Assembly: GCA_035510605.1 (NCBI GenBank)
Contig: DATKGW010000006.1
Span: 1-59,588, forward strand
Length of the DNA: 59,588 bases
Direction of reading: 5' to 3'
DNA from: Patescibacteria group bacterium
GTDB taxonomy: Bacteria > Patescibacteriota > Saccharimonadia > Saccharimonadales > CAIOMD01
This document shows, piece after piece, positions 1,068-55,769 of the stretch. The translations under genes were made by a program, and so were the position numbers. Each line of letters opens with the position of its first letter. Within the stretch, counting starts at the first letter, position 1. Below the pieces are notes generated by a model that was not told the DNA's origin, ran no database searches, and saw only the letters and a list, made by a program, of their open reading frames with translations.

Positions 1068-1166
1068 TTTGGCTACTCATCATTATAACTCACTAGTAAA
1101 TATTACCCCTGTTTTGCTATACTAGGCAACGTCGGGGGCGTAGCTCATCGGTTAGAGCAGGCGGCT

Positions 1167-1764
1167 CAAGAAGTTCATTCTAAATTATGCTGCGGATAAT
1201 GTAGTTCCTGAGGGCAATTGCAGCAGACAAGGATACATTTTTGTACCTCCTTATCTATCGATTCTTCCTTCCGATTGGATAAGGCTCGTAAATCGAGCTT
1301 AAACTCCTTTTATTCAGGGTTTCGATGGTGAAAAGCTAGCGTAGACAAATTTTTATTGTAGCCACAAATGGAACATCTTCCTACGTATTTTAGTACAACA
1401 GCACGTTTTCTTTTTAGACCTCTTGATTGTTGAGCTAAATATGATTGGAGATAGTTATTTTGACATTTTGGCGAACAATAAAGTTTCTGTTTACCTCTCA
1501 GTAGTTTCCCGCATTTTACGCAGGTTATGATATTATTCATAACCATTAGCACAACACGAATGATCTTGCAGGGCTACCTGAAAAGTAATTTTCAGGTGAT
1601 AATCTGTCAAATTCGGGGAAGCCTTAAATGGTAATCCCGAGCCAATCTCGCCTTGGCGAGCAGGTGTAGAGACTAAACGGCAGACATCCTTAAGCACAAG
1701 TCGAAGGATGAAGAGATAGTCCAGCTCACAAAGTCGAAAGATGTTGCGAAAGCAATAGTGAGAG
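1167..1764 (+). ncRNA. group I self-splicing intron (IC3-like core) in the anticodon loop
   Basis: The 5' exon ends in U1166 and the intron ends in G1764. Core blocks GUCAAAUUCGGGG (1606-1618), CCCGAGCCAA (1636-1645), GGUGUAGAGACUAAACGGCA (1663-1682) and GAUAGUC (1715-1721) match the Azoarcus/Anabaena pre-tRNA intron core as I recall it. UCUUG 1564-1568 pairs with the first five intron nt, CAAGA 1167-1171. Confidence 0.8.
1175..1552 (-). pseudogene. Zn-ribbon + HNH endonuclease gene, antisense to the intron, interrupted by an in-frame TAA
   Basis: The track ORF 1310..1552 ends ...AFHHRNPE at TAA 1310-1312. The same frame continues KEFKLDLRALSNRKEESIDKEVQKCILVCCNCPQELHY to TGA 1175-1177. It aligns with the intact paralog at 50965-51336 (DFHHDSLEKKDF...KCSVLCANCHRIVHY). 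CxNCH is changed to CNCP. Confidence 0.7.
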
Positions 1765-1902
1765 CATAACCGCTTGGTAGTTGGTTCGATTCCAACCGCC
1801 CCCACCACTTTAAGCATTGCTTAACTTAATCTACATAAAATGTAAGTTTTACTTATGCCTGTAGGTTATGTTAATAATTAACTGGTAAACCAAAATAAAA
1901 AC

Positions 1903-8412: not shown

Positions 8413-8493
8413 ATGAATGAAATTGGTTTTAGCTATGAGCTTTCTCCTACAAACAACGAGGAACTCCAGAAGATTGACAAACTTCTGGCCTAA
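8413..8493 (+). CDS. 26-aa small protein candidate (MNEIGFSYELSPTNNEELQKIDKLLA)
   Basis: The ATG is preceded by AAAGGAGAAAG. A consensus promoter lies upstream and an intrinsic terminator downstream. It is below the ORF-track size cutoff. Confidence 0.4.
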   Translation: MNEIGFSYELSPTNNEELQKIDKLLA

Positions 8494-8517
8494 GCGGGCG
8501 TAGGAACAAGCGCCTAA

Positions 8518-8547
8518 AAAGACTCGCCAAAATAGCGGGTCTTTTTA
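8518..8547 (+). terminator. intrinsic terminator
   Basis: AAAGACTCGC 8518-8527 pairs with GCGGGTCTTT 8535-8544 (one G-U pair), followed by a T-run. Confidence 0.6.
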
Positions 8548-8557
8548 TTCTACAGGG

Positions 8558-8587
8558 TTGGCTTAACAGAGATAAATTTGTTATAGT
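8558..8587 (+). promoter_or_regulatory. extended -10 promoter for the tRNA-Met transcript
   Basis: TTGGCT 8558-8563, 18-nt spacer, TGtTATAGT ending at 8587. Confidence 0.45.
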
Positions 8588-8597
8588 ACTTCTAGTG

Positions 8598-8692
8598 AGG
8601 CGGTGCCATGTAGTGGACTTTTGCTAGTCTTTGTTTTGCACAAAGACACATGCAAGCACTATTGGTACTTGCTAAGCAAAAGCTCACTACAT
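8598..8692 (+). other. structured 5' leader of tRNA-Met (20-bp helix closing two inner hairpins)
   Basis: 8606-8625 pairs with 8675-8694 (10 bp, one G-U, one A-C mismatch, 8 bp). The inner hairpins are 8627-8633/8641-8647 and 8652-8656/8668-8672. The helix base abuts tRNA position +1. Confidence 0.5.
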
Positions 8693-8769
8693 GGCGGCGT
8701 AGCTCAGTTGGTTAGAGCGTAGGACTCATAAGCCTAAGGTCACTGGTTCAATTCCAGTCGCCGCTACCA
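8693..8769 (+). tRNA. tRNA-Met(CAU), elongator-like
   Basis: GGCGGCG UA GCUC AGUUGGUUA GAGC G UAGGA CUCAUAA GCCUA AGGUC ACUGG UUCAAUU CCAGU CGCCGCU A CCA. The D and T arms resemble E. coli elongator tRNA-Met. Confidence 0.85.
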
Positions 8770-8862
8770 TAAGCATTTAAATGGCAATATTACTGGTATA
8801 ATTACATTGACTCTTAGTAAAATATATGTTATAAATAATATATAAATATAAAACAAAAAATT

Positions 8863-10272
8863 ATGCCTGCTGTATCAGAAATTTACCCGCATTTAGATTC
8901 ACAAGAAATTGCTTCTTTGGAGCAAGAGGAATCTGGTGAATTTTTAATCACAAAGGAACTTATTGGCAAGTTGGGTAACGTAGCAACTTCGGAATTGCTG
9001 AAGACTAGCGAAATTGAAACAAATTTAGCTAATCAAACTGATGCAAATGAAAGAATATATTTAAACCCGGAGTTTACTAAACTTGAGCCTGAGCTAAAAA
9101 AAGCGATCCTTGATATAAAACCATTAGGTACTTTACTGGATACTCTTGAAAGATACGGCGATCCAGATATAGAAAAAGGGCAGGATGTAAATTTAGAAAA
9201 TATTGTATTTATTAGAGCCGCCGATTTTTATCCAGTTGAAAAAGGGGGCAAATTTGTAGTTGAAACGCCGTATGAAGCAACGAAAAATGAAGAAGACCCT
9301 GATATGGTATCGTTACGTTTAACATCACACTGGACTTTAAATCATAAGGTTACGAGTCATATGATGGGCAATTGGGAGGGGGCACCTTACACTATATTGG
9401 CACCGGGTAAGCAAATGGTAGAAATTAATGGTGCTCCTACCGACCTGTATCCGATTGATACTTTTTGGACCCGTAGTTTAGAGCTTCCAAAAGGAACAGC
9501 CATAATAAGCGTTGACAATAATTTTGAAAATAGACTAGACATTATAGATGGCGTAGATGTAATCCACGTCAAACCCAATGAGCCAGTTGATGAGGTTATA
9601 TCTTTGGTCATGAATAAAATGGGCTTTTCTGAAATGTCTGGAGGCAGTCATGGCTCAGCATCGCATGAATTTGAGAAACAGGTTACTACCACCCTGGCAG
9701 ATAAAATGGGTGTTGAATTGAGAGGAAAGCATGAGTCAGCAGCACTTCATGGCAACTTGGAAACACTTATAGAAGTCGGATTTGAGAATAGTTTCGCCAG
9801 TCTATTAGTTTCTAGAGACGAGGCAAGGAGAATAATAGTGAACGAACGGTGGGACCAATTACCTCAAAAAATGAAGGATCTGTTAATTGATAGGATGGAC
9901 ATTATCCCAGATATTGATAGTATTGGCTCTACTTTAGATGAGCAAATTGAAAGAACCAACGCTCTATTTTCAAATGGATCGAGATCTCTTCCAGAGGTAT
10001 ACAGGTTTGAGAGAAGAAAAGAAATTTTTGATAAAAAACCTCCAGAATTTTGGATTAGCTATGTTAGAAAACTGTTTCAACTAGAGAAACAGCTTAAAGA
10101 TGCGGGTAAATACGATTTTATGAGTAAGGTGACTGAAATTGAAACCGATAGATTTGGTTATATGTCTGAAGGATATATAAAAAGCCTTGCAGAACTTATA
10201 GCCGGTGATAATAGCCATGATAGTAAGCTTGAAGAACTTGAAAACCGCTTAAGGACCGAGATAGGGTCATAG
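8863..10272 (+). CDS. hypothetical protein (469 aa, no recognisable domain)
   Basis: A long uninterrupted ORF in an AT-rich block. TTGACT-17-TATAAA lies upstream (8807-8835). The N-terminus is acidic and the C-terminal half looks helical. Confidence 0.6.
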   Translation: MPAVSEIYPHLDSQEIASLEQEESGEFLITKELIGKLGNVATSELLKTSEIETNLANQTDANERIYLNPEFTKLEPELKKAILDIKPLGTLLDTLERYGDPDIEKGQDVNLENIVFIRAADFYPVEKGGKFVVETPYEATKNEEDPDMVSLRLTSHWTLNHKVTSHMMGNWEGAPYTILAPGKQMVEINGAPTDLYPIDTFWTRSLELPKGTAIISVDNNFENRLDIIDGVDVIHVKPNEPVDEVISLVMNKMGFSEMSGGSHGSASHEFEKQVTTTLADKMGVELRGKHESAALHGNLETLIEVGFENSFASLLVSRDEARRIIVNERWDQLPQKMKDLLIDRMDIIPDIDSIGSTLDEQIERTNALFSNGSRSLPEVYRFERRKEIFDKKPPEFWISYVRKLFQLEKQLKDAGKYDFMSKVTEIETDRFGYMSEGYIKSLAELIAGDNSHDSKLEELENRLRTEIGS

Positions 10273-11183: not shown

Positions 11184-11517
11184 AACCTGTTCAATAAAAA
11201 TTGATCTAGTTGATTATCACGTATCTTATCGGGGTTGACTAATTTAGTTTTGTTTAGTTTGCAAAGATGACTACCAAATAAAAAAGCTCTCTTGTTTTGG
11301 CTTAAAATAACTGGACTTAAATCTTATTGTCTCAGTGCCAAATAGAGAGCTGAAAAATAACAATTTTTACATTTAAAATTCTAACGCTTTACTAACTCTG
11401 TCTGCAGTAATAAATTTTACTCTTTCAAAAACACTGCCGTTAAAATTATTACAGATAACTACCCAAGGGTTACTATATTATTTTGCATAACAGACACGCT
11501 AAACTTTTTGGGGAGTC

Positions 11518-11931
11518 ATGATGTCGGAGATGTATGAGGATATACACAGTAGGCTGGAGGGTAAGGATGATTTTCGTACTGCTTCTGAAGAGACATTATT
11601 TGGTCCTGTATCTGTGATTAAAGGTCTAATAATTTTTATTAGTGCAGTAATTATTAGCCTGCTGGCCTTAAGGCTTATTTTTATTGTGATGGGCACAAGT
11701 TCTGATAATGGTCTTGTTAGTTTTATTTACACCGCTACCCATCCGCTAGTAGTACCTTTTACAGGGGTATTAGATCATCATTCTGTTTTTGGGGCTATAA
11801 ATTTTGATCCAGAATCATTGCCGGAATCATCAATTGCTATTATCGTTAGTTTATTCGTGGTGTGGATATTAAACCGGTTATTGTCGGTTTTTTACTTATT
11901 TAATACTAAAAAACCTTCTCTAGACCATTAA
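11518..11931 (+). CDS. membrane protein, YggT-like
   Basis: TM helix LIIFISAVIISLLALRLIFIVMG, then FIYTATHPLVVPFTG, and a second C-terminal TM helix. Confidence 0.4.
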   Translation: MMSEMYEDIHSRLEGKDDFRTASEETLFGPVSVIKGLIIFISAVIISLLALRLIFIVMGTSSDNGLVSFIYTATHPLVVPFTGVLDHHSVFGAINFDPESLPESSIAIIVSLFVVWILNRLLSVFYLFNTKKPSLDH

Positions 11932-11988
11932 TGGACAGCGTAACAGGGTAATTTCTTTTGTGTATGATAAAAGTGTGAGTTAAGCCAT

Positions 11989-12675
11989 ATGAAATTAAAA
12001 CTGATTCAAAAAAAAGTCGAAACCAAAGATGTGGAGTCGTTTGTATTTGAGCCATCCAAACCGATAAAATGGCAAGCCGGTCAGTTTTTGCATTATGTAC
12101 TTGATCACAAAAATCCGGATGACAGGGGTATTGAGCGGTGGTTTACAATTTCTAATGCTCCGTTTGAGGATTGCCCGAGAATCACCACTCGCATAACTGA
12201 CCCGGATGGCAGTACTTTTAAAAAGGCTTTGCTGTCAATGAAAAGCGGGGATTTTATTGAAGGTGATAACCCCGAAGGTGATTTCATTTATGATAAAAAG
12301 GCTCAAAAGCATATTTTGATTGCCGGTGGGATTGGCGTGACCCCTTACCGATCAATGCTTTTACAGCTAGATCATGATGACCAACCCATTGATGCCGAGT
12401 TGCTTTATGCTAACAGGGATTCTGATTTGGTGTTTGATGCAGAATTTTCTCAGTTGGAAAATAAATATCCAGATTTTCACATTTTGCGGTTTACTGACGA
12501 TAAGTACATAGAAAAAGCCGATCTGGCTAAATATATCAACGAAAAGAGCATCTTGTTTTATATATCCGGCCCTAAAAAAATGGTAGATATTTATCAGGCT
12601 ATGCTGGCCGAACTCGGAATACCTGAGAATCAGATTATTTTAGATTACTTTCCTGGCTACGGTGCTTACAATTAA
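11989..12675 (+). CDS. ferredoxin-NADP reductase-like FAD/NAD(P)-binding oxidoreductase
   Basis: RWFTISNAP (RxYS-type FAD motif), GGIGVTPYRSM (NAD-binding), ISGPKKMV. Confidence 0.75.
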   Translation: MKLKLIQKKVETKDVESFVFEPSKPIKWQAGQFLHYVLDHKNPDDRGIERWFTISNAPFEDCPRITTRITDPDGSTFKKALLSMKSGDFIEGDNPEGDFIYDKKAQKHILIAGGIGVTPYRSMLLQLDHDDQPIDAELLYANRDSDLVFDAEFSQLENKYPDFHILRFTDDKYIEKADLAKYINEKSILFYISGPKKMVDIYQAMLAELGIPENQIILDYFPGYGAYN

Positions 12676-49331: not shown

Positions 49332-50846
49332 ATGGAAGTAATTGCCATCATTTTGGCTGTAGTTGGTATTGGAGCTGGTTTTGGAACCAGCCAAGTTGTT
49401 ATGCGCCGTAAAATCGGCTCGGCAGCAGACGAGGCCGAAAAGCAATTAGCCAAGGCCAATAAGGAGTCCACAGCTATTACTAGAAAGGCTCAGGAAGATG
49501 CTGCCAAAATTGCCGAAGACACGCGCAAAGAAGAACAACAGCATCGTCGTGAATTAAAAGAAACCGAAAGCCGTTTGCTCGACCGGGAAACTTCACTCGA
49601 TCGAAAGCTGGACGACTTGGATAACCGGAGTGAAAAATTACGTAAAAGCGAAGACGAAGTTGAAGAACTTAAGAATGAAATCCGTGAACTTCGCACCAAG
49701 CAGCAGGATAAGTTAGAAAAAGTTGCCAAGCTTACAAAAGCCGAAGCGGCCGACAAACTCATGCAAATGACGGAGCGTGACATAAAAAACGATTTAACAG
49801 GATTAATAGTTAAGTTACAAAGCGATGCCCAGGATTTGGCCGAAGAAACCGCCGGTACGATTATCGTTTCGGCGATGGAACGGATGGCCAGCGAAGTGGC
49901 TGCCGAGCGCACCGTAACTGCCGTTAAGCTCGAAGACGAAGAAATGAAGGGCCGCATAATCGGTAAAGAAGGTCGAAATATCCAGGCCTTACAACGTGCC
50001 ACCGGAGTTGATGTTTTGGTTGATGATACCCCTGGAATGATTGTGCTTTCCAGTTTTGATCCGGTCCGACGCGAGGTTGCCCGGGTGGCGCTGGAGATGC
50101 TGCTTAAAGACGGTCGGGTACATCCCGGACGTATCGAAGAGGTTGTCGAAAAAGCCCAAAAGCAAGTTCAAAAAGAAGTTGTCCAAGCCGGTGAAGACGC
50201 TGCCCGAGAAGTCGGTATCGTAGGAATCCCGCGCGAAATTCTGCAGTATCTGGGCGAGCTAAAATTCCGCACTAGTTATGGCCAAAACGTGCTCAAGCAT
50301 TCTACCGAAATGGCTCATATGGCCGGCATTATCGCCGAAGAATTAGGGGCAGATGTTAGAATCACTAAATATGCCGCCCTGATCCACGATATCGGCAAAG
50401 CCCTTAGCCATAAGATGGAAGGCAAGCATCATGTAATTTCCGGCGAAATGGCTCGTAAATACGGTGTGCCGGAAGAGGTTGCCCATGCCGCTGAAGCTCA
50501 CCACGAAGACATGGAAGCTACAACCGTAGAGGCTTTAATTATTCGGGTTGTAGATGCCATTAGCGCTGCTCGCCCAGGTGCCCGTAACATTAGCAGCGAG
50601 AACTTTGCCGAAAGAATGAAGGAGCTGGAAAACGTAGCCACCGGTTTTGACGGTATCGAAAAGGCTTACGCTATTAGTGCCGGCCGAGAAGTTCGTATTT
50701 TTGTTAAGCCCGGTGAAATCGATGATCTTAGCGCCATAAAGCTAGCCCGAGATATTGCTACCAAGATAGAATCTACCATGCAATACCCCGGCACGATTAA
50801 GGTAAACGTTATCCGTGAAACCCGCGCCATCGAATTCGCCAAGTAG
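49332..50846 (+). CDS. rny: ribonuclease Y
   Basis: N-terminal TM helix, coiled coil, KH motif GRIIGKEGRNIQAL, HD domain LIHDIGKA. Confidence 0.95.
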   Translation: MEVIAIILAVVGIGAGFGTSQVVMRRKIGSAADEAEKQLAKANKESTAITRKAQEDAAKIAEDTRKEEQQHRRELKETESRLLDRETSLDRKLDDLDNRSEKLRKSEDEVEELKNEIRELRTKQQDKLEKVAKLTKAEAADKLMQMTERDIKNDLTGLIVKLQSDAQDLAEETAGTIIVSAMERMASEVAAERTVTAVKLEDEEMKGRIIGKEGRNIQALQRATGVDVLVDDTPGMIVLSSFDPVRREVARVALEMLLKDGRVHPGRIEEVVEKAQKQVQKEVVQAGEDAAREVGIVGIPREILQYLGELKFRTSYGQNVLKHSTEMAHMAGIIAEELGADVRITKYAALIHDIGKALSHKMEGKHHVISGEMARKYGVPEEVAHAAEAHHEDMEATTVEALIIRVVDAISAARPGARNISSENFAERMKELENVATGFDGIEKAYAISAGREVRIFVKPGEIDDLSAIKLARDIATKIESTMQYPGTIKVNVIRETRAIEFAK

Positions 50847-50895
50847 AAAAATATAGCTAATTACCCCTTAATCTGTTACAATTATGCCGTTTTAA

Positions 50896-50928
50896 CGGGG
50901 TGTGGCGCAGTTGGCTAGCGTTTTGGGA
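50896..50928 (+). pseudogene. tRNA-Pro 5' fragment (acceptor and D arm, then an anticodon-loop-like UUUUGGGA)
   Basis: 50896-50920 is identical to the first 25 nt of tRNA-Pro(CGG) at 51860-51884. No 3' half follows. Confidence 0.75.
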
Positions 50929-50964
50929 TATTGCAATGGCACCCAAATCAAATATAATCAAGGA

Positions 50965-51336
50965 ATGCTTAAAACCTGTCGTTATTGTCATAAGCAATAC
51001 CCAGAAACGGACTTTGGTGTAGCGGTGACACTTCCTGAAAAAATATATCGTCGTCAAAAATGCCGATATTGTTACAGGAAAACCAAAAGACTACTAATAG
51101 ATCGTCATCGCAAATGGATTGAAGAATATAAACAATATGAACGTTGCGAAAAATGTGGGATAGCTGACTTTCGAGTGCTAGATTTTCATCATGACAGTCT
51201 TGAGAAAAAAGATTTTAACATATCTGATTTTCGCTACAGGGCAGGCTTTAAGAAACTAAAAGAAGAGGTGAAAAAGTGTTCGGTGCTTTGCGCAAACTGC
51301 CATAGGATTGTACACTACGAAGAGAGCAAGAAGTAA
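50965..51336 (+). CDS. Zn-ribbon + HNH endonuclease (apparently intact)
   Basis: CRYC...CRYC and CEKC...DFHH...N...CANCH motifs. The longer track ORF starts at a GTG inside the tRNA fragment, so the start is uncertain. Confidence 0.75.
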   Translation: MLKTCRYCHKQYPETDFGVAVTLPEKIYRRQKCRYCYRKTKRLLIDRHRKWIEEYKQYERCEKCGIADFRVLDFHHDSLEKKDFNISDFRYRAGFKKLKEEVKKCSVLCANCHRIVHYEESKK

Positions 51337-51349
51337 TACTTAAAAATCT

Positions 51350-51426
51350 CGGGGATTGGCGCAGTTGGCTAGCGCGCGCGCTTTGGGAGCGCGAGGTCGG
51401 AGGTTCGAGTCCTCTATCCCCGACCA
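51350..51426 (+). tRNA. tRNA-Pro(UGG)
   Basis: CGGGGAU UG GCGC AGUUGGCUA GCGC G CGCGC UUUGGGA GCGCG AGGUC GGAGG UUCGAGU CCUCU AUCCCCG A CCA. Confidence 0.9.
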
Positions 51427-51445
51427 CGTCGCAATAAACTAAAAC

Positions 51446-51473
51446 GCTCTGCAATCCAAAAGCAGAGCTTTTT
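51446..51473 (+). terminator. intrinsic terminator after tRNA-Pro(UGG)
   Basis: GCTCTGC pairs with GCAGAGC, followed by TTTTT. Confidence 0.65.
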
Positions 51474-51505
51474 AGTTGTTATGAGCTTACCGTTATTGTT
51501 TCTTT

Positions 51506-51543
51506 AAACTACTTAAACAGCTAAAGCTTGGTTTAAGTAGTTT
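51506..51543 (+). repeat. conserved hairpin motif, copy 1
   Basis: AAACTACTTAAAC-AGCTAAAGCTTG-GTTTAAGTAGTTT: a 13-bp stem and a T-run. Homologous to 52846-52883, with compensatory changes. Confidence 0.6.
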
Positions 51544-51605
51544 TGTTAAATTGCGGAGCTTGTCTCCGGTCTTTTTACGCTGTCAATTTGTGATATATTA
51601 CAGGC

Positions 51606-51818
51606 ATGAATACAATTTCAATCAACACGAGTTTGGCAGTCGCAATAGCCGCTGCCTTAATATTAGATCTAATATTAAGAGGCTTCGCTCTTTGGCGGGC
51701 CGCACATCGAAATGACAATGTGTGGTTTATTGTCTTATTGGTGGTCAACACCGTAGGCATATTGCCATTAATTTACTTGCTATTCTTTTCCAAACCACAA
51801 AAGAAATCAGCAAAATAA
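51606..51818 (+). CDS. small 2-TM membrane protein (DUF5652-like)
   Basis: LRGFALWRAAHRNDNVWFIVLLVVNTVGILPLIYLLFF. TGaTATATT lies 6 nt upstream of the ATG. Confidence 0.5.
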   Translation: MNTISINTSLAVAIAAALILDLILRGFALWRAAHRNDNVWFIVLLVVNTVGILPLIYLLFFSKPQKKSAK

Positions 51819-51859
51819 TCTAGTTTATTAGTACAATAAAGTATATCTGCATCCAATAA

Positions 51860-51936
51860 CGGGGTGTGGCGCAGTTGGCTAGCGCGCAGCGTTCGGGACG
51901 CTGAGGCCGGAGGTTCGAGTCCTCTCACCCCGACCA
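51860..51936 (+). tRNA. tRNA-Pro(CGG)
   Basis: CGGGGUG UG GCGC AGUUGGCUA GCGC G CAGCG UUCGGGA CGCUG AGGCC GGAGG UUCGAGU CCUCU CACCCCG A CCA. Confidence 0.9.
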
Positions 51937-51966
51937 TGTTTGCAGATTAGAGTATAATAATTACCT

Positions 51967-52656
51967 ATGAATGGAATGCTGTTCGCAGCATCAGGCACAG
52001 CCGCTCTACTACTTATAGGCGAATGGTTGTGGCGAAAAAAAATAACCAAAGGTGAAATAGCCCGTAAGTTTGTTCATATTACTGCGGCAACTTTCGCAGC
52101 TTTTTGGCCTTTGTTTATGAACCGTAATGACATCGTAATTCTAAGCCTTTTATTTGTTGCCGCACTTGTCGTTATCAAAAAATTACATATATTTAATTCG
52201 CTACACAGCGTACAGCGGGCAACTTACGGCGAGATATGGTATGCCATAAGTATAGGTGTAATCGCACTAGTGTTTAAGGATGATGTGATTTATGCCATTG
52301 CCATTTTGCATCTGGCTTTGGCAGATGGTTTTGCAGCAGTGATTGGGGCAGGATTAGCTAAAAGGGCCAGGAATTTTAGATTCAGAGGTTGCCGAAAAAG
52401 CATTGCCGGTACGCTTACTTTTTTAATAATTTCATTTGCGCTGAATTTAAGCTACTGGGCATTTGCTACTCACTATCCAATAAATAATAGTGGTATATAT
52501 TTATCACCTATTTTGTATAGTTTGTTATCTGCCGCCCTGCTGGCCGGTACGGAAATATCTGCGCCAAAGGGCAGTGATAATGTTATAGTGCCGCTACTGG
52601 CCGGTGGATTGCTGTGGATACCCACAGTTCTATTGGCTGCTAATGTAATTTTTTAG
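51967..52656 (+). CDS. polytopic membrane protein, CTP-dependent polyprenol/diacylglycerol kinase (dolichol kinase/CDS-like) family
   Basis: About 7 TM helices. KFVHITAATFA, YGEIWYAISIG, LADGFAAVIG...KSIAGTLTF. Confidence 0.4.
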   Translation: MNGMLFAASGTAALLLIGEWLWRKKITKGEIARKFVHITAATFAAFWPLFMNRNDIVILSLLFVAALVVIKKLHIFNSLHSVQRATYGEIWYAISIGVIALVFKDDVIYAIAILHLALADGFAAVIGAGLAKRARNFRFRGCRKSIAGTLTFLIISFALNLSYWAFATHYPINNSGIYLSPILYSLLSAALLAGTEISAPKGSDNVIVPLLAGGLLWIPTVLLAANVIF

Positions 52657-52694
52657 ATAAAATAATCGACCAATCAATAGTCGATTATTTTATT

Positions 52695-52772
52695 TGGGGC
52701 GAGCGATGAGGCTTGAACTCACGACCTCCTATTCCACAGATAGGCGCTCTGACCAACTGAGCTACGCCCGCC
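52695..52772 (-). tRNA. tRNA-His(GUG) with encoded G-1
   Basis: G GCGGGCG UA GCUC AGUUGGUCA GAGC G CCUAU CUGUGGA AUAGG AGGUC GUGAG UUCAAGC CUCAU CGCUCGC C CCA. Confidence 0.9.
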
Positions 52773-52845
52773 TTGTTGACGTTCACTATCGGCTAACGCA
52801 AGTTCGGTAAACTCTCTTGCTTACGCCTTTCGCTACGTCTTCTCT

Positions 52846-52883
52846 AAATCAATTAAACAACTAAAGTTTGGTTTAATTGATTT
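52846..52883 (+). repeat. conserved hairpin motif, copy 2
   Basis: AAATCAATTAAAC-AACTAAAGTTTG-GTTTAATTGATTT. Three stem pairs and one inner pair differ from copy 1 by double compensatory substitutions. Confidence 0.6.
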
Positions 52884-52907
52884 TATACACTGTTTTAGCA
52901 AAAGCTA

Positions 52908-52924
52908 TAACAGGGGTAATTATA
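52908..52924 (-). promoter_or_regulatory. TATAAT plus CCCC-discriminator motif (probable promoter of the tRNA-His transcript)
   Basis: The minus strand reads TATAATTACCCCTGTTA, matching 16 of 17 positions of the motif directly upstream of tRNA-Gly. Confidence 0.4.
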
Positions 52925-52943
52925 CTTGGTCATTATCGAAAAC

Positions 52944-52985
52944 TCAACCAAATGAAGTGGTACCCCGGGAAGGACTCGAACCTAC
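52944..52985 (-). repeat. displaced tRNA-Arg-like 3' fragment plus trailer (direct repeat of 53351-53392)
   Basis: The minus strand reads GTAGGTTCGAGTCCTTCCCGGGGTACCA followed by CTTCATTTGGTTGA. About 35 of 43 aligned positions match the T arm, acceptor, CCA and trailer of tRNA-Arg(UCU). Confidence 0.7.
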
Positions 52986-53323
52986 ACTACTATTATTTGT
53001 CACTAATCTATTGAAAGATCGTATTCGGTGACAATTAGAACAAACGACTTCACACTTAGCTATCTCACGATTTAAAGCATCCTTATTATACCTTCGTACA
53101 AATTCATTAATTAGACCCTCTTTATTATCCAGATGATCAAAGTCCATCACATAATGTGGGTATAGTTTTCCGCAATCGGTACACGGAGTTGACTCTTTTA
53201 TCTGCGACACATAGTGTCGCAATTTAGCTCTATTGATTCTATTTCTGTCTAAGTATCGCTACTTATTTTCTCTGTAATGTTTTTGCTGAACTCTAATTGT
53301 TTATTATGGTCTTTATAAGGCAT
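52944..53323 (-). pseudogene. HNH endonuclease paralog, frameshifted near its 5' end and read through into the tRNA fragment at its 3' end
   Basis: ATG 53323 gives MPYKDHNKQLEFSKNITEKISSDT then a stop. A shifted frame continues RYLDRNRINRAKLRHYV...CTDCG...DFDHLDN...CSNCHRIRS (the track ORF 52944..53222 starts at a TTG). The HNH motifs are intact. Confidence 0.65.
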
Positions 53324-53364
53324 AATTGGATTATAACAACAAATAGTAGTTCAAACCAATAAAG

Positions 53365-53441
53365 TGGTGCCCCGAGCAGGATTCGAACCTGCGACCTTGA
53401 GCTTAGAAGTCTCCTGCTCTATCCAGCTGAGCTATCGGGGC
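53365..53441 (-). tRNA. tRNA-Arg(UCU)
   Basis: GCCCCGA UA GCUC AGCUGGAUA GAGC A GGAGA CUUCUAA GCUCA AGGUC GCAGG UUCGAAU CCUGC UCGGGGC A CCA. The anticodon stem has mismatches at both ends (27-43 and 31-39). Confidence 0.8.
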
Positions 53442-53452
53442 TTACTATGACG

Positions 53453-53527
53453 TGGTGCGGGTGGGGAGAGTCGAACTCCCGTTTTCAACTTGGAAGGCTG
53501 ACATAATAGCCGTTATACGACACCCGC
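53453..53527 (-). tRNA. tRNA-Gly(UCC)
   Basis: GCGGGUG UCGUAUAACGGCUAUUAUG UCAGC CUUCCAA GUUGA AAAC GGGAG UUCGACU CUCCC CACCCGC A CCA. Very similar to E. coli tRNA-Gly(UCC). Confidence 0.88.
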
Positions 53528-53547
53528 TAACAGGGGCAATTATATCA
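53528..53547 (-). promoter_or_regulatory. extended -10 promoter with C-rich discriminator for the tRNA-Gly/tRNA-Arg transcript
   Basis: The minus strand reads TGaTATAATTGCCCCTGTTA, ending 1 nt before tRNA-Gly position 1. Confidence 0.5.
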
Positions 53548-53560
53548 CAATAAGGTGTAA

Positions 53561-54172
53561 TTATTCTTGTTCAACACTGAATATTCTGGGTTTTAGCATG
53601 ATTACCCTAAACAACAACGCAAATGAATATATGCAAATTGTATATAGGATGACAGACATTACAAGCCACAACCACGATGAAGGACTTTTTAAGGTAGTGA
53701 CAGATACAAAAAAATGTCTAGTAAGACTGATGTTAATAGACTTAATAAAAACAATTGTCCAAAAAATTAAACCAAAAATGCCAACTATCCGGACAGCAAT
53801 CTTTGTTAAAAAGGCGTTAATTTCATGTATTCGGCTACTGGGATTTTGATAATAATGGATTAATTCGACTTCGTCATCGGCACTTTTTATAGTTGCAATC
53901 ATGACCGAGACTAAGACGAACACTACACAGCCGATTATTATCCAAACAAAAAAATCAATGACATGAGGATTTATTTTATCCAGATTATTTTTAATAAACC
54001 TGCTAAATAAATTATCGGTGCCTTCGATATTATTTACCCAGTTCAACGTATTACCGGATGCTAACAACCAAAATCTTTTTGCGTTTAGCGCAATCAAAAC
54101 AAACAAACCAAGCGCTGTAAATAATATGATTTCAATCCAGCTTGGTACCAATAATTTATAATATTGTTTCAT
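53561..54172 (-). CDS. membrane protein (about 5 TM)
   Basis: Hydrophobic ORF. No domain recognised. Confidence 0.45.
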   Translation of the reverse strand: MKQYYKLLVPSWIEIILFTALGLFVLIALNAKRFWLLASGNTLNWVNNIEGTDNLFSRFIKNNLDKINPHVIDFFVWIIIGCVVFVLVSVMIATIKSADDEVELIHYYQNPSSRIHEINAFLTKIAVRIVGIFGLIFWTIVFIKSINISLTRHFFVSVTTLKSPSSWLWLVMSVILYTICIYSFALLFRVIMLKPRIFSVEQE

Positions 54173-54230
54173 GGAGTTTTAACTAGATACTAGCTGCAGT
54201 TTTTTATAAACACAAGTTTTTGAGAATATA

Positions 54231-55769
54231 TTATAAGTCGTGGAGCGTGTTTATGCGTGCACCAAGCTCTTGCAACCGTTCGACCAATGATTCATAACCT
54301 CTGTTAATTGAGTACACATTTCGCAAAACCGATTTTCCCGGTGCTGCCAACATGGCTGTCAGTATTATTGCGGCTGGGCGCAAGGCGGGCGGGCAAATAA
54401 CTTCTGCGGCTTTAAATTTAGTTGGCCCGGCGACAATCACGCGATGCGGATCCAGCAGACGAACCTGGGCGCCAAGTTTATTAAGCTCAGTAAAATAAAT
54501 TGCCCTATCTTCGTAAACCCAGTCATGGATTAAGGTTTCACCCTTAGCTATAGCGGCAATCGGTACGAAAAAAGGTAAATTATCCATGTTTATACCGGGG
54601 TATGGCATAGCGTGAATTTTATCATCCAAAGCAGTTAATATACCATGGTGGTGAGTTGTGATGTCGACTAGCCTGGTATGCCCGTTTTTAGCTGTATATT
54701 CTGGGCTAAAGGTGAATTTTAAGCCCATTTTTTGAAGTTTTAAAAGCTCAAGTTCCAAAAAATCTATCGGGCATCTGTTTAATTTGATGTTTGAGTTGGT
54801 TAAAACGGCTGCCGTGATAAATAACATTGCCTCTAAGGGGTCTTCGCTGGCAGCATAATGAACTCGTTTATGGATTTCGCTTACACCGTGAACGGTCAGG
54901 GTGCTGGTGCCGATTCCGTCAATCCTAACACCCATTTTTTGTAAAAATAGACAAACATCCTGGACCATATAATTGGATGAAGCAAAGCGGATAATGGTTT
55001 TGCCTTTGGCCATGGCTGCCGCAAACAAGGTGTTCTCGGTAGCGGTATCGCCGGTTTCGTACATGGTAATTTGGCCGGGTTCTTGTTTCTTGACGGTTAC
55101 GCGATATTCACCACTAATGGTTTTAATATTTGCACCAAATCGTTCAAGAGAATATTTGTGGGCAGCAATCGTCCGTTTACCGAGGCTGCAACCACCAGCA
55201 TAAGGTAATGAAAATTCTTTATAACGGTGTATCAGAGCTCCCATAAGCATAATAATACTGCGGGTTTTTTTGGCCGATTCAACGTTGATATTTTCTAATT
55301 GCAAACGGGCAGGTGGTTTGATTTCTAGGTCACCTTTTATCCAACGGACACGTACGCCGATACTTTGCAAGACCTCAATAATTCTAAAAACTTCTTCGAT
55401 TTGGGGGACTTGTTCAAGATAAGTCGTGCCACGATTAAGTAGAGAACCGGCCAGTAACGCCACAGACGCGTTTTTGGATGTTTTCATAATTATTTCACCA
55501 TGCAGTTCATGGCCGCCCTCGATTTCAAAACCAAGAGAACCGGGGTTAAGACTGACAATATTACGCCCTAAAGCCGTACTAACTCTGGATATGGTGTCGA
55601 GGCTTAAGTTTTGTTTGCCTTGCTCGATCCGGTTAACTGCCGATTGGCTGGTTTTTAGGCGTTTGGCAAACTCCGATTGGGTAAGTCCGCGTTCTTGTCT
55701 TATTTGATAGATTAACTGGCCTATTTTTTGGTTATTTGTACTCATACGTTCGGTAATTATATCAAGCAA
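54231..55769 (-). CDS. murA: XRE-type HTH domain fused to UDP-N-acetylglucosamine 1-carboxyvinyltransferase (MurA)
   Basis: N-terminus IRQERGLTQSEFAKRLKTSQSAVNRIEQGKQNLSL (an HTH_3-like domain). Then a MurA fold: GHELHGEIIMKTSKNASVALLAGSLL, and the catalytic-Cys loop LPYAGGCSLGKRTIAAH. Confidence 0.8.
   Translation of the reverse strand: MLDIITERMSTNNQKIGQLIYQIRQERGLTQSEFAKRLKTSQSAVNRIEQGKQNLSLDTISRVSTALGRNIVSLNPGSLGFEIEGGHELHGEIIMKTSKNASVALLAGSLLNRGTTYLEQVPQIEEVFRIIEVLQSIGVRVRWIKGDLEIKPPARLQLENINVESAKKTRSIIMLMGALIHRYKEFSLPYAGGCSLGKRTIAAHKYSLERFGANIKTISGEYRVTVKKQEPGQITMYETGDTATENTLFAAAMAKGKTIIRFASSNYMVQDVCLFLQKMGVRIDGIGTSTLTVHGVSEIHKRVHYAASEDPLEAMLFITAAVLTNSNIKLNRCPIDFLELELLKLQKMGLKFTFSPEYTAKNGHTRLVDITTHHHGILTALDDKIHAMPYPGINMDNLPFFVPIAAIAKGETLIHDWVYEDRAIYFTELNKLGAQVRLLDPHRVIVAGPTKFKAAEVICPPALRPAAIILTAMLAAPGKSVLRNVYSINRGYESLVERLQELGARINTLHDL

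Follow-up and report, generated by a model that had tools for sequence, protein, structure and literature searches.

A free-standing HNH endonuclease gene upstream of tRNA-Pro(UGG) in a Saccharimonadales genome and the probable scar of its arrival

Why should the 5′ end of a proline tRNA gene occur twice, letter for letter, on either side of a small nuclease gene? The question is raised by contig DATKGW010000006.1 of a Patescibacteria group bacterium (Saccharimonadales; assembly GCA_035510605.1), the 59,588 nt of which were analysed as a whole and are referred to here as the window. The window contains exactly two copies of the 28-mer TAACGGGGTGTGGCGCAGTTGGCTAGCG, at 50893–50920 and 51857–51884, and no 28-nt repeat is expected by chance in shuffled sequence. 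An earlier note on this DNA took the repeat to bracket a 964-bp module, comprising an HNH gene, tRNA-Pro(UGG) and a gene for a small membrane protein, which had entered tRNA-Pro(CGG), regenerated the 5′ end of its target and could be excised by recombination between the repeats. In this study, the locus was compared with its relatives in Saccharibacteria and in other groups of the candidate phyla radiation (CPR), a radiation of ultra-small bacteria. The comparison points to a smaller insert and to a different target. The HNH gene, HNH-B, is probably a free-standing homing endonuclease gene belonging to a family sited upstream of tRNA-Pro(UGG) genes, and the left repeat copy is probably the scar of its arrival.

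The resident locus and the extent of the insertion

The exact repeat of the earlier note is borne out, as is its reading of the right copy as the start of an intact tRNA-Pro(CGG) gene: this copy consists of 3 nt of flank followed by tRNA nucleotides 1–25 of the gene called at 51860–51936 by ARAGORN and Rfam (plus strand; 51857–51936 with the flank). The HNH open reading frame (ORF), tRNA-Pro(UGG), a terminator hairpin, a repeated hairpin element and a DUF5652 gene were all found between the repeat copies. Two further assemblies (L175 and L176) share the arrangement of the window at 99.5% identity, and a single 3374-nt contig from a permafrost run (depth 114) spans 50300–52400 with zero differences. 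Chance and assembly artefact were both considered as origins of the repeat layout and were ruled out by the shuffles and the independent assemblies. The repeat is nonetheless less special than an exact match of 28 nt implies, as a third copy, 86% identical, forms the start of tRNA-Pro(UGG) and the sequence is common across the clade.

The state of the locus before HNH-B can be read from the RNase Y gene that precedes it (49332–50846), which matches Saccharibacteria genomes only and the 80 closest loci of which were annotated as a comparison set. L001, with an RNase Y that is 87% identical, contains RNase Y, a 47-nt promoter spacer, tRNA-Pro(UGG), DUF5652 and tRNA-Pro(CGG), and has neither an HNH gene nor a tRNA fragment. 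Its spacer reads ATCTGTTATGAT, 11 nt and then the tRNA. The matching stretch of the window, from the RNase Y stop codon to the former tRNA-Pro(UGG) start (50847–50895, plus strand, by alignment to L001 and L003), reads ATCTGTTACAAT, 13 nt and then the fragment. The element ATCTGTTA and a −10 box (TACAAT at 50877–50882, plus strand, in the window) are common to the window spacer and to the RNase Y–tRNA-Pro(UGG) spacers of the HNH-less loci L001 and L003, and the distance from the −10 box to the tRNA start is 11–13 nt across the aligned spacers. The window spacer matches the promoter spacer of tRNA-Pro(UGG), and the fragment therefore occupies the start position of the resident tRNA-Pro(UGG) gene.

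Neither an HNH homologue nor a stray tRNA-Pro fragment was found in the 80 closest RNase Y loci. DUF5652 is flanked by the two tRNA-Pro genes in L001, which has no HNH gene, and also in L003 and L004; the order tRNA-Pro(UGG)–DUF5652–tRNA-Pro(CGG) is likewise kept in L003, L004, L090 and L171, and the order DUF5652, tRNA-Pro(CGG), 229-aa protein recurs in relatives. The resident locus is RNase Y, promoter, tRNA-Pro(UGG), DUF5652 and tRNA-Pro(CGG). Judged by these gene orders, tRNA-Pro(UGG) and the small membrane protein gene of the DUF5652 family (51606–51818, plus strand; Pfam PF18893, E = 2.4e-21) are resident genes and not cargo. The extra DNA, by the same comparison, is only ~430–450 bp, made up of a dead tRNA-Pro 5′ piece, an inverted repeat, a promoter and a 123-aa HNH gene. 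The earlier note envisaged an empty site with a single tRNA-Pro(CGG); L001 is such a site in lacking the HNH gene and the fragment, but it keeps tRNA-Pro(UGG) and DUF5652. At the level of 87% RNase Y identity three states are seen: no HNH gene in L001, an HNH gene without the fragment in L090, and both in the window. An HNH gene stands at this same site in L090, L087, L172 and L174.

The tRNA-Pro remnant and the inverted repeat

The left repeat copy (50893–50920, plus strand) contributes the first 25 nt of a dead tRNA-Pro gene at 50896–50920, which correspond to the 5′ strand of the acceptor stem and the D arm. Its description as a tRNA-Pro 5′ piece is supported, and neither ARAGORN nor Rfam calls a tRNA there. 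The copy runs into TTTTGGGA (50921–50928), which the earlier note read as an anticodon loop that had lost its 5′ anticodon stem. Six other loci agree with this reading, as in each of them a comparable remnant, likewise placed before a homologous HNH gene, reads across the anticodon stem into CTTTGGGAG with no gap. Relative to the intact gene, 6–7 nt of (GC)n anticodon stem are absent between 50920 and 50921, and the missing stem belongs to a GCGCGCGC run that is prone to slippage. tRNA-Pro 5′ remnants lie directly upstream of HNH in L094, L099, L100, L103, L109 and L114, and a similar one was seen by eye in L096; the left arm of the inverted repeat is continuous with the undeleted tRNA-Pro 5′ half in L096, L099, L100, L103 and L109. 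The match to real tRNA-Pro ends at position 38 (42 in L114), which is the 3′ edge of the anticodon loop. The remnants differ in allele from the intact tRNA downstream, and this difference in sequence type indicates that they are not simple tandem duplications. The window fragment, compared with these remnants, is best described as one of the same kind after decay.

No other tRNA-Pro(UGG) 5′ end is as frequent in the clade as the 25 tRNA nucleotides of the fragment (29 of 66 genomes, among them L003, the RNase Y of which is 86% identical), and these nucleotides likewise begin the tRNA-Pro(UGG) beside L171, the closest HNH homologue. The exact match to tRNA-Pro(CGG) would accordingly be a matter of paralogy, the two tRNA-Pro genes of the clade commonly sharing their first 25 nt. 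The TAA flank precedes only three of the 66 related tRNA-Pro(UGG) genes; its match is possibly due to chance (~5%) or to a later conversion event with the CGG gene, 964 bp distant, as donor.

The pairing of TTTGGG (50922–50927) with CCCAAA (50942–50947), pointed out in the earlier note, is real and is conserved across the HNH-B family. It forms part of an inverted repeat, TTTTGGGA … CCCAAAT (50921–50948, plus strand), the position and sequence of which are kept before homologous HNH genes. Many family genes are preceded by a recurrent element consisting of TTTGGGA, 10–14 nt, TCCCAAA, a −10 box and the start codon, and TTTGGGA is the anticodon loop of tRNA-Pro(UGG). Stems in the family are 6–11 bp long, with a constant arm sequence and a covarying inner pair. 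The single-strand stability of the hairpin at 50921–50948 is unremarkable (z-score −0.97), so that its significance rests on conservation and not on energy. A consensus scan placed a promoter-like site for HNH-B at 50931–50958 (plus strand; TTGCAA, 16 nt, TATAAT; 10/12 consensus matches), the −35 box of which sits inside the loop of the inverted repeat; the HNH −10 box lies at a constant distance in homologous loci. With two copies of the presumed target motif placed around the −35 box, the HNH protein may repress its own promoter. This self-operator is proposed on account of the constant arm, the covariation of the inner pair and the position of the repeat on both sides of the −35 box.

HNH-B, its family and the proposed course of homing

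HNH-B (50965–51336, plus strand) is an intact gene of 123 codons, the true start of which is the ATG at 50965 according to the starts of its homologues. It matches phrog_2255, 'HNH endonuclease' (E = 2.5e-27), and aligns with its homologues as a two-domain protein with an N-terminal Cys4 zinc ribbon and a C-terminal HNH (ββα-Me) domain, in which every family-invariant Cys, His and Asn residue is retained (His75, His76, Asn111, His117 and four Cys pairs). The AlphaFold model has a pLDDT of 92. A fold search gave the ββα-Me enzyme Hpy99I as the best PDB match, a weak one (E = 0.067), and a sequence search of solved structures gave only a marginal match to McrA (E = 0.74); both were used solely to confirm the fold class. 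No Pfam or NCBIfam model matched HNH-B at threshold. The gene is free-standing, with no group I intron (RF00028) at the locus and with its own promoter-like site.

At least 192 homologues of HNH-B were found, and a profile search returned 74 cluster representatives at E ≤ 1e-30 and 11,559 at E ≤ 1e-10. Family loci were gathered by exact-protein look-ups and a metagenome scan, and linkage was counted in those 37 distinct full-length homologues (34–99% identity) whose loci extend far enough past the gene. Of the 37, 28 are followed on the same strand and within 110 nt by tRNA-Pro(UGG) as the nearest gene, one by tRNA-Pro(CGG) and two by tRNA-Arg(UCU). The neighbourhoods are otherwise unrelated, ranging from the Saccharibacteria RNase Y locus to tRNA clusters of other CPR groups and phage-like tRNA arrays, and the same layout is found again in unrelated CPR lineages. 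Relatives that match the C-terminal HNH domain alone have no link to tRNA-Pro, which indicates that the zinc-ribbon domain goes with the linkage. From these neighbourhoods, HNH-B is assigned to a CPR-wide family sited directly before tRNA-Pro(UGG) genes. An association of HNH genes with tRNA-Pro in CPR bacteria is not described in the literature searched, the scope of which lay outside subscription journals.

The intact tRNA-Pro(UGG) (51350–51426, plus strand; ARAGORN and Rfam) starts 13 nt past the HNH-B stop codon and has no promoter of its own. Contigs from peat metatranscriptomes cover 51040–51390 and run from within HNH into the tRNA (for example, 51070–51390), and the RNase Y end is uncovered in those runs. 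HNH-B and tRNA-Pro(UGG) are probably co-transcribed, although the contigs could also stem from DNA carry-over. Direct reading of the sequence gives a terminator-like hairpin, GCTCTGC/GCAGAGC followed by TTTTT (51446–51473, plus strand), that would close the HNH–tRNA unit; its loop is 9 nt long, and the consensus scan therefore omitted it.

Among relatives, the HNH gene is patchily present at one site and its identity is at odds with that of its host. In six genomes HNH identities of 66–78% do not track RNase Y identities of 72–98%. L081 and L172 have RNase Y genes that are 98% identical and HNH genes that are only 73% identical, and their conserved flanks surround differently arranged tRNA alleles: the HNH gene lies between two tRNA-Pro genes, before tRNA-Pro(CGG), in L081 and before tRNA-Pro(UGG) in L172. 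The tRNA beside the HNH gene is also of a distinct type. The pair that closes the anticodon loop is G31–C39 in 63 and C31–G39 in three of 66 HNH-less Saccharibacteria tRNA-Pro(UGG) genes, whereas all six distinct HNH-linked Saccharibacteria genes, including that of the window, have C31–G39 (6/6 versus 3/66; Fisher's test 5e-7, a value that is not corrected for kinship). This pair coincides with the place where the remnants end, and the pattern resembles co-conversion of a linked allele, or an immune allele.

We favour a course of events in which tRNA-Pro(UGG) genes that lack an HNH neighbour would be cut by the nuclease at the anticodon loop or close beside it. Repair of the break from an HNH-bearing copy would import both the nuclease gene and the tRNA allele linked to it, and the C31–G39 allele probably resists cutting. 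If the left-hand junction arises at the short TTTGGGA match and not at a point further upstream, the 5′ half of the resident gene would survive as a dead remnant and then decay, here presumably with the loss of 6–7 nt through slippage in the GCGCGCGC run. The order now observed behind the resident promoter is 25 nt of tRNA-Pro, the anticodon-loop remnant within the inverted repeat, the promoter, HNH and a tRNA-Pro(UGG) of a different allele. A fuller picture is offered tentatively, its combined parts falling somewhat short of an even chance: a widespread selfish CPR family that cuts tRNA-Pro(UGG) in the anticodon loop, moves as one unit with a cut-resistant tRNA allele, crosses between distant genomes using the tRNA as homology, controls its promoter through a mimic of its target and drives the turnover of alleles of an essential tRNA throughout the radiation. 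If the proposed target is right, HNH-B would be a compact 123-aa nuclease with a guessable DNA site and a natural case of a selfish gene whose spread exchanges one allele of an essential tRNA for another. A scar of this kind would also account for stray tRNA halves that confuse annotation and for the breaks and chimeras that metagenome-assembled genomes show at tRNA-Pro genes.

Two rival explanations give the segment between the repeats a different history, and both fit the locus poorly. The 964-bp module of the earlier note, excisable through its repeats, agrees with an exact repeat that brackets the segment and with L054, where a promoter stands directly before this same tRNA-Pro(CGG) and is followed by 759 bp of identical downstream DNA. 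It is nevertheless extremely improbable, as L001, which has no HNH gene, already carries tRNA-Pro(UGG) followed by DUF5652 in the interval from RNase Y to tRNA-Pro(CGG), an order kept in the four further loci named above, and the left repeat lies at the tRNA-Pro(UGG) start position behind the promoter of that gene. HNH and DUF5652 are the sole ORFs between the repeats, and neither encodes a recombinase. Mobile elements that integrate in tRNA genes normally duplicate the tRNA 3′ end, whereas it is the 5′ end that is duplicated here. Neither a single-copy deletion nor a circle junction was seen in four metagenome runs, the contigs of which may miss rare forms, and excision by recombination between the repeats thus found no support. 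L054 itself is only ~69% identical upstream of the tRNA, so that a different genome is joined there, most likely as an assembly chimera. What stands of the insertion claim is that the locus bears the scar of an insertion after which a functional tRNA-Pro was still present; the unit is not 964 bp, and the target, as L001 indicates, is not tRNA-Pro(CGG). The second rival makes the fragment and hairpin the 5′ exon and P1 of a lost, HNH-bearing group I intron in tRNA-Pro(UGG), with the intact tRNA as a paralogue. The junction does lie at the anticodon loop, the site of bacterial tRNA group I introns, the exon-like TTTGGGA pairs with the downstream TCCCAAA in the manner of P1, and elsewhere in the window the anticodon loop of another tRNA is interrupted by a genuine group I intron that holds a related HNH gene. 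We consider this very unlikely all the same: RF00028 gives no signal in 49500–54500 at E ≤ 1, where Rfam matches tRNAs only, and no match at the gathering score in 40 loci carrying family members. The distance of at most 16 nt from the HNH stop to the next tRNA in Saccharibacteria loci, together with the −10 box after the hairpin, leaves no room for a ribozyme. In L114 the anticodon arm of the remnant is complete and the motif occurs a second time, apart from it, as the hairpin. The acceptor strand of the window fragment, CGGGGTG, does not pair with ATCCCCG at the 3′ end of the intact tRNA.

Several points weigh against the explanation by arrival of a homing endonuclease gene, and some of them favour a third rival. 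L174, with an HNH protein 77% identical to HNH-B, has no inverted repeat. The C31–G39 association fails outside Saccharibacteria, where 10 of 23 linked tRNAs are G–C, and target specificity may vary between HNH subfamilies. An HNH-less allele of the same species was not found in the contigs of the four metagenome runs. Cleavage, the cut site and the immune allele are all inferred from sequence comparison. The fragment, furthermore, matches the tRNA-Pro(CGG) of the window itself at 28 of 28 positions, including the three flanking letters TAA that are rare before tRNA-Pro(UGG), and the closest relatives, L001 and L005, have a GAT-type acceptor stem like the intact tRNA-Pro(UGG) of the window, not the GTG type of the fragment, so that either copy in the window may be the resident one. 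The fragment may therefore possibly be a copy of, or a gene conversion from, tRNA-Pro(CGG), and in its full form this rival has the 5′ end of the CGG gene copied locally, by template switch or gene conversion, at a break at the HNH site, with HNH still a homing endonuclease. The absence of any substitution relative to the CGG gene in a fragment that is otherwise decayed speaks for it as well. It is unlikely on balance, since the fragment stands at the right distance behind the resident tRNA-Pro(UGG) promoter, continues into the UGG-type loop TTTGGGA and not the TTCGGGA of the CGG gene, and carries 25 nt that are common tRNA-Pro(UGG) sequence in the clade.

L054 (DATKGL010000019.1), a contig of a public metagenome-assembled genome, deserves description in its own right. 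Its positions 8416–9174 are 100% identical to window 51859–52617, and the switch occurs at the tRNA-Pro 5′ end; a chimera joined through shared tRNA-Pro 5′ sequence is most likely, and a real recombination junction is less likely. In run X2, a 111-nt contig (depth 9, against 7 for the main contig) places 50896–50921 directly before 51855–51884. It includes the diagnostic T at 50921, followed by AATAA and the tRNA-Pro(CGG) start, and its remaining 55 nt have no match in the window. This is not the junction expected from recombination between the repeats and is unexplained. An integrase-mediated element with att duplication was also considered and was rejected, there being no recombinase and the empty site in L001 keeping tRNA-Pro(UGG) and DUF5652.

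Known relatives and other HNH copies in the window

Free-standing nuclease genes among tRNA genes are known from phages. Phage T4 encodes the free-standing endonuclease SegB within its tRNA cluster; the enzyme recognizes the tRNA T-psi-C motif, and by homing it transfers its own gene along with adjacent tRNA genes to genomes without it. The expression of SegB is tied to the processing of the tRNA transcript, and the T5 F-Tfl HNH enzymes are likewise encoded in a tRNA cluster (PMC2330249). HNH-B resembles SegB in being a free-standing nuclease gene among tRNA genes. It is no relative of SegB, however, being of HNH type and chromosomal where SegB is a GIY-YIG enzyme of a phage directed at the T-psi-C stem-loop, and its presumed site is the anticodon loop of tRNA-Pro(UGG) only, with a tRNA-half scar left behind. 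It shares a layout with the HNH genes of T5-like phages (F-TflI, F-TflII, F-TflIV and unannotated relatives), which lie directly upstream of tRNA genes in tRNA arrays. Full-length homologues of HNH-B with the same two-domain layout occur at 33–34% identity in the tRNA arrays of T5-like phages (Demerecviridae). Those of Salmonella phage SLAM_phiST45 (L177, 1501–1851) and Vibrio phage VCPH (L179, 1501–1839) are intact and unannotated and lie 18 nt before tRNA-Ala and 9 nt before tRNA-Tyr, respectively, and so, unlike HNH-B, precede tRNAs other than tRNA-Pro. The tRNA region of phage T5 itself contains no HNH-B homologue at E ≤ 0.01, which places the T5 heg genes in other HNH subfamilies. By analogy, HNH-B may be regarded as a T4/T5-type tRNA-cluster element in a new setting of bacterial chromosomes, attached to one tRNA and leaving tRNA-half scars. 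Free-standing homing endonucleases that ride on tRNA genes, studied so far in T4 and T5, would thereby extend to CPR chromosomes, with a single tRNA across many lineages and with scars that may be datable.

Two further systems invite comparison. The insertion in Allomyces mitochondrial atp6 is a mobile endonuclease ORF that carries a replacement piece of the gene it invades. As there, part of the resident gene would be displaced and persist in non-functional form, its role taken over by an intact copy on the incoming DNA. Insertions of the Allomyces type affect organellar protein genes and replace the 3′ end, whereas with HNH-B the whole tRNA would travel and the old 5′ half stays. Group I introns with homing endonuclease genes are present in tRNA anticodon loops, as in Azoarcus tRNA-Ile and cyanobacterial tRNA-Leu and tRNA-fMet, and the anticodon loop appears to be the point of invasion in both cases. 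Unlike these introns, HNH-B and the 40 homologous loci have no ribozyme, and the tRNA would be replaced and not split.

The window contains two more HNH genes related to HNH-B, each of them at a tRNA gene. A tRNA at 1134–1807 (plus strand), missed by default ARAGORN, is split in its anticodon loop by a 598-nt group I intron (RF00028, 73.8 bits, core 1557–1746). ARAGORN assigns it as Leu(CAA), and the splice rules of group I introns (U at the exon end and G at the intron end) give the loop CU|CAUAA and the anticodon CAU (Met or Ile2). HNH-C lies antisense in this intron (1190–1552, minus strand; 32% identity to HNH-B residues 25–120), and its ORF stops at 1310, just after the HH motif, so that the gene is broken. 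The other is HNH-A, part of a second, decayed cassette at 52958–53300 (minus strand) located 1.6 kb from HNH-B and downstream of an intact tRNA-Arg(UCU) at 53365–53441. HNH-A (53300 to 53001, minus strand; 37% identity to HNH-B) has a broken N-terminus, with stop codons upstream of a TTG start, and is followed by a 28-nt tRNA-Arg 3′ remnant (52985–52958) and a duplicated 3′ flank. This remnant resembles the tRNA-Arg(UCU) of relatives (..GGGGTACCA) and not the intact gene of the window (..GGGGCACCA). In L006 the corresponding site is empty, with the Arg and His tRNAs 81 nt apart and no HNH gene. The three related genes would represent three states of a homing cycle in one genome. A separate case is L015, in which ~11220–12110 (minus strand) holds three tandem tRNA-Arg(UCU) 3′ ends with ~190 nt of flank and no HNH gene; duplications of tRNA ends there thus arise or persist also without a nuclease gene.

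A hairpin element with the core TTAAACARCTAAAGYTTGGTTTAA is present in two copies, at 51500–51544 and 52840–52884, each near a tRNA gene. The stems of the two copies differ in sequence and yet both pair, which indicates compensatory changes. The independent short contigs L175 and L176 both stop at 51552, just past the first copy.

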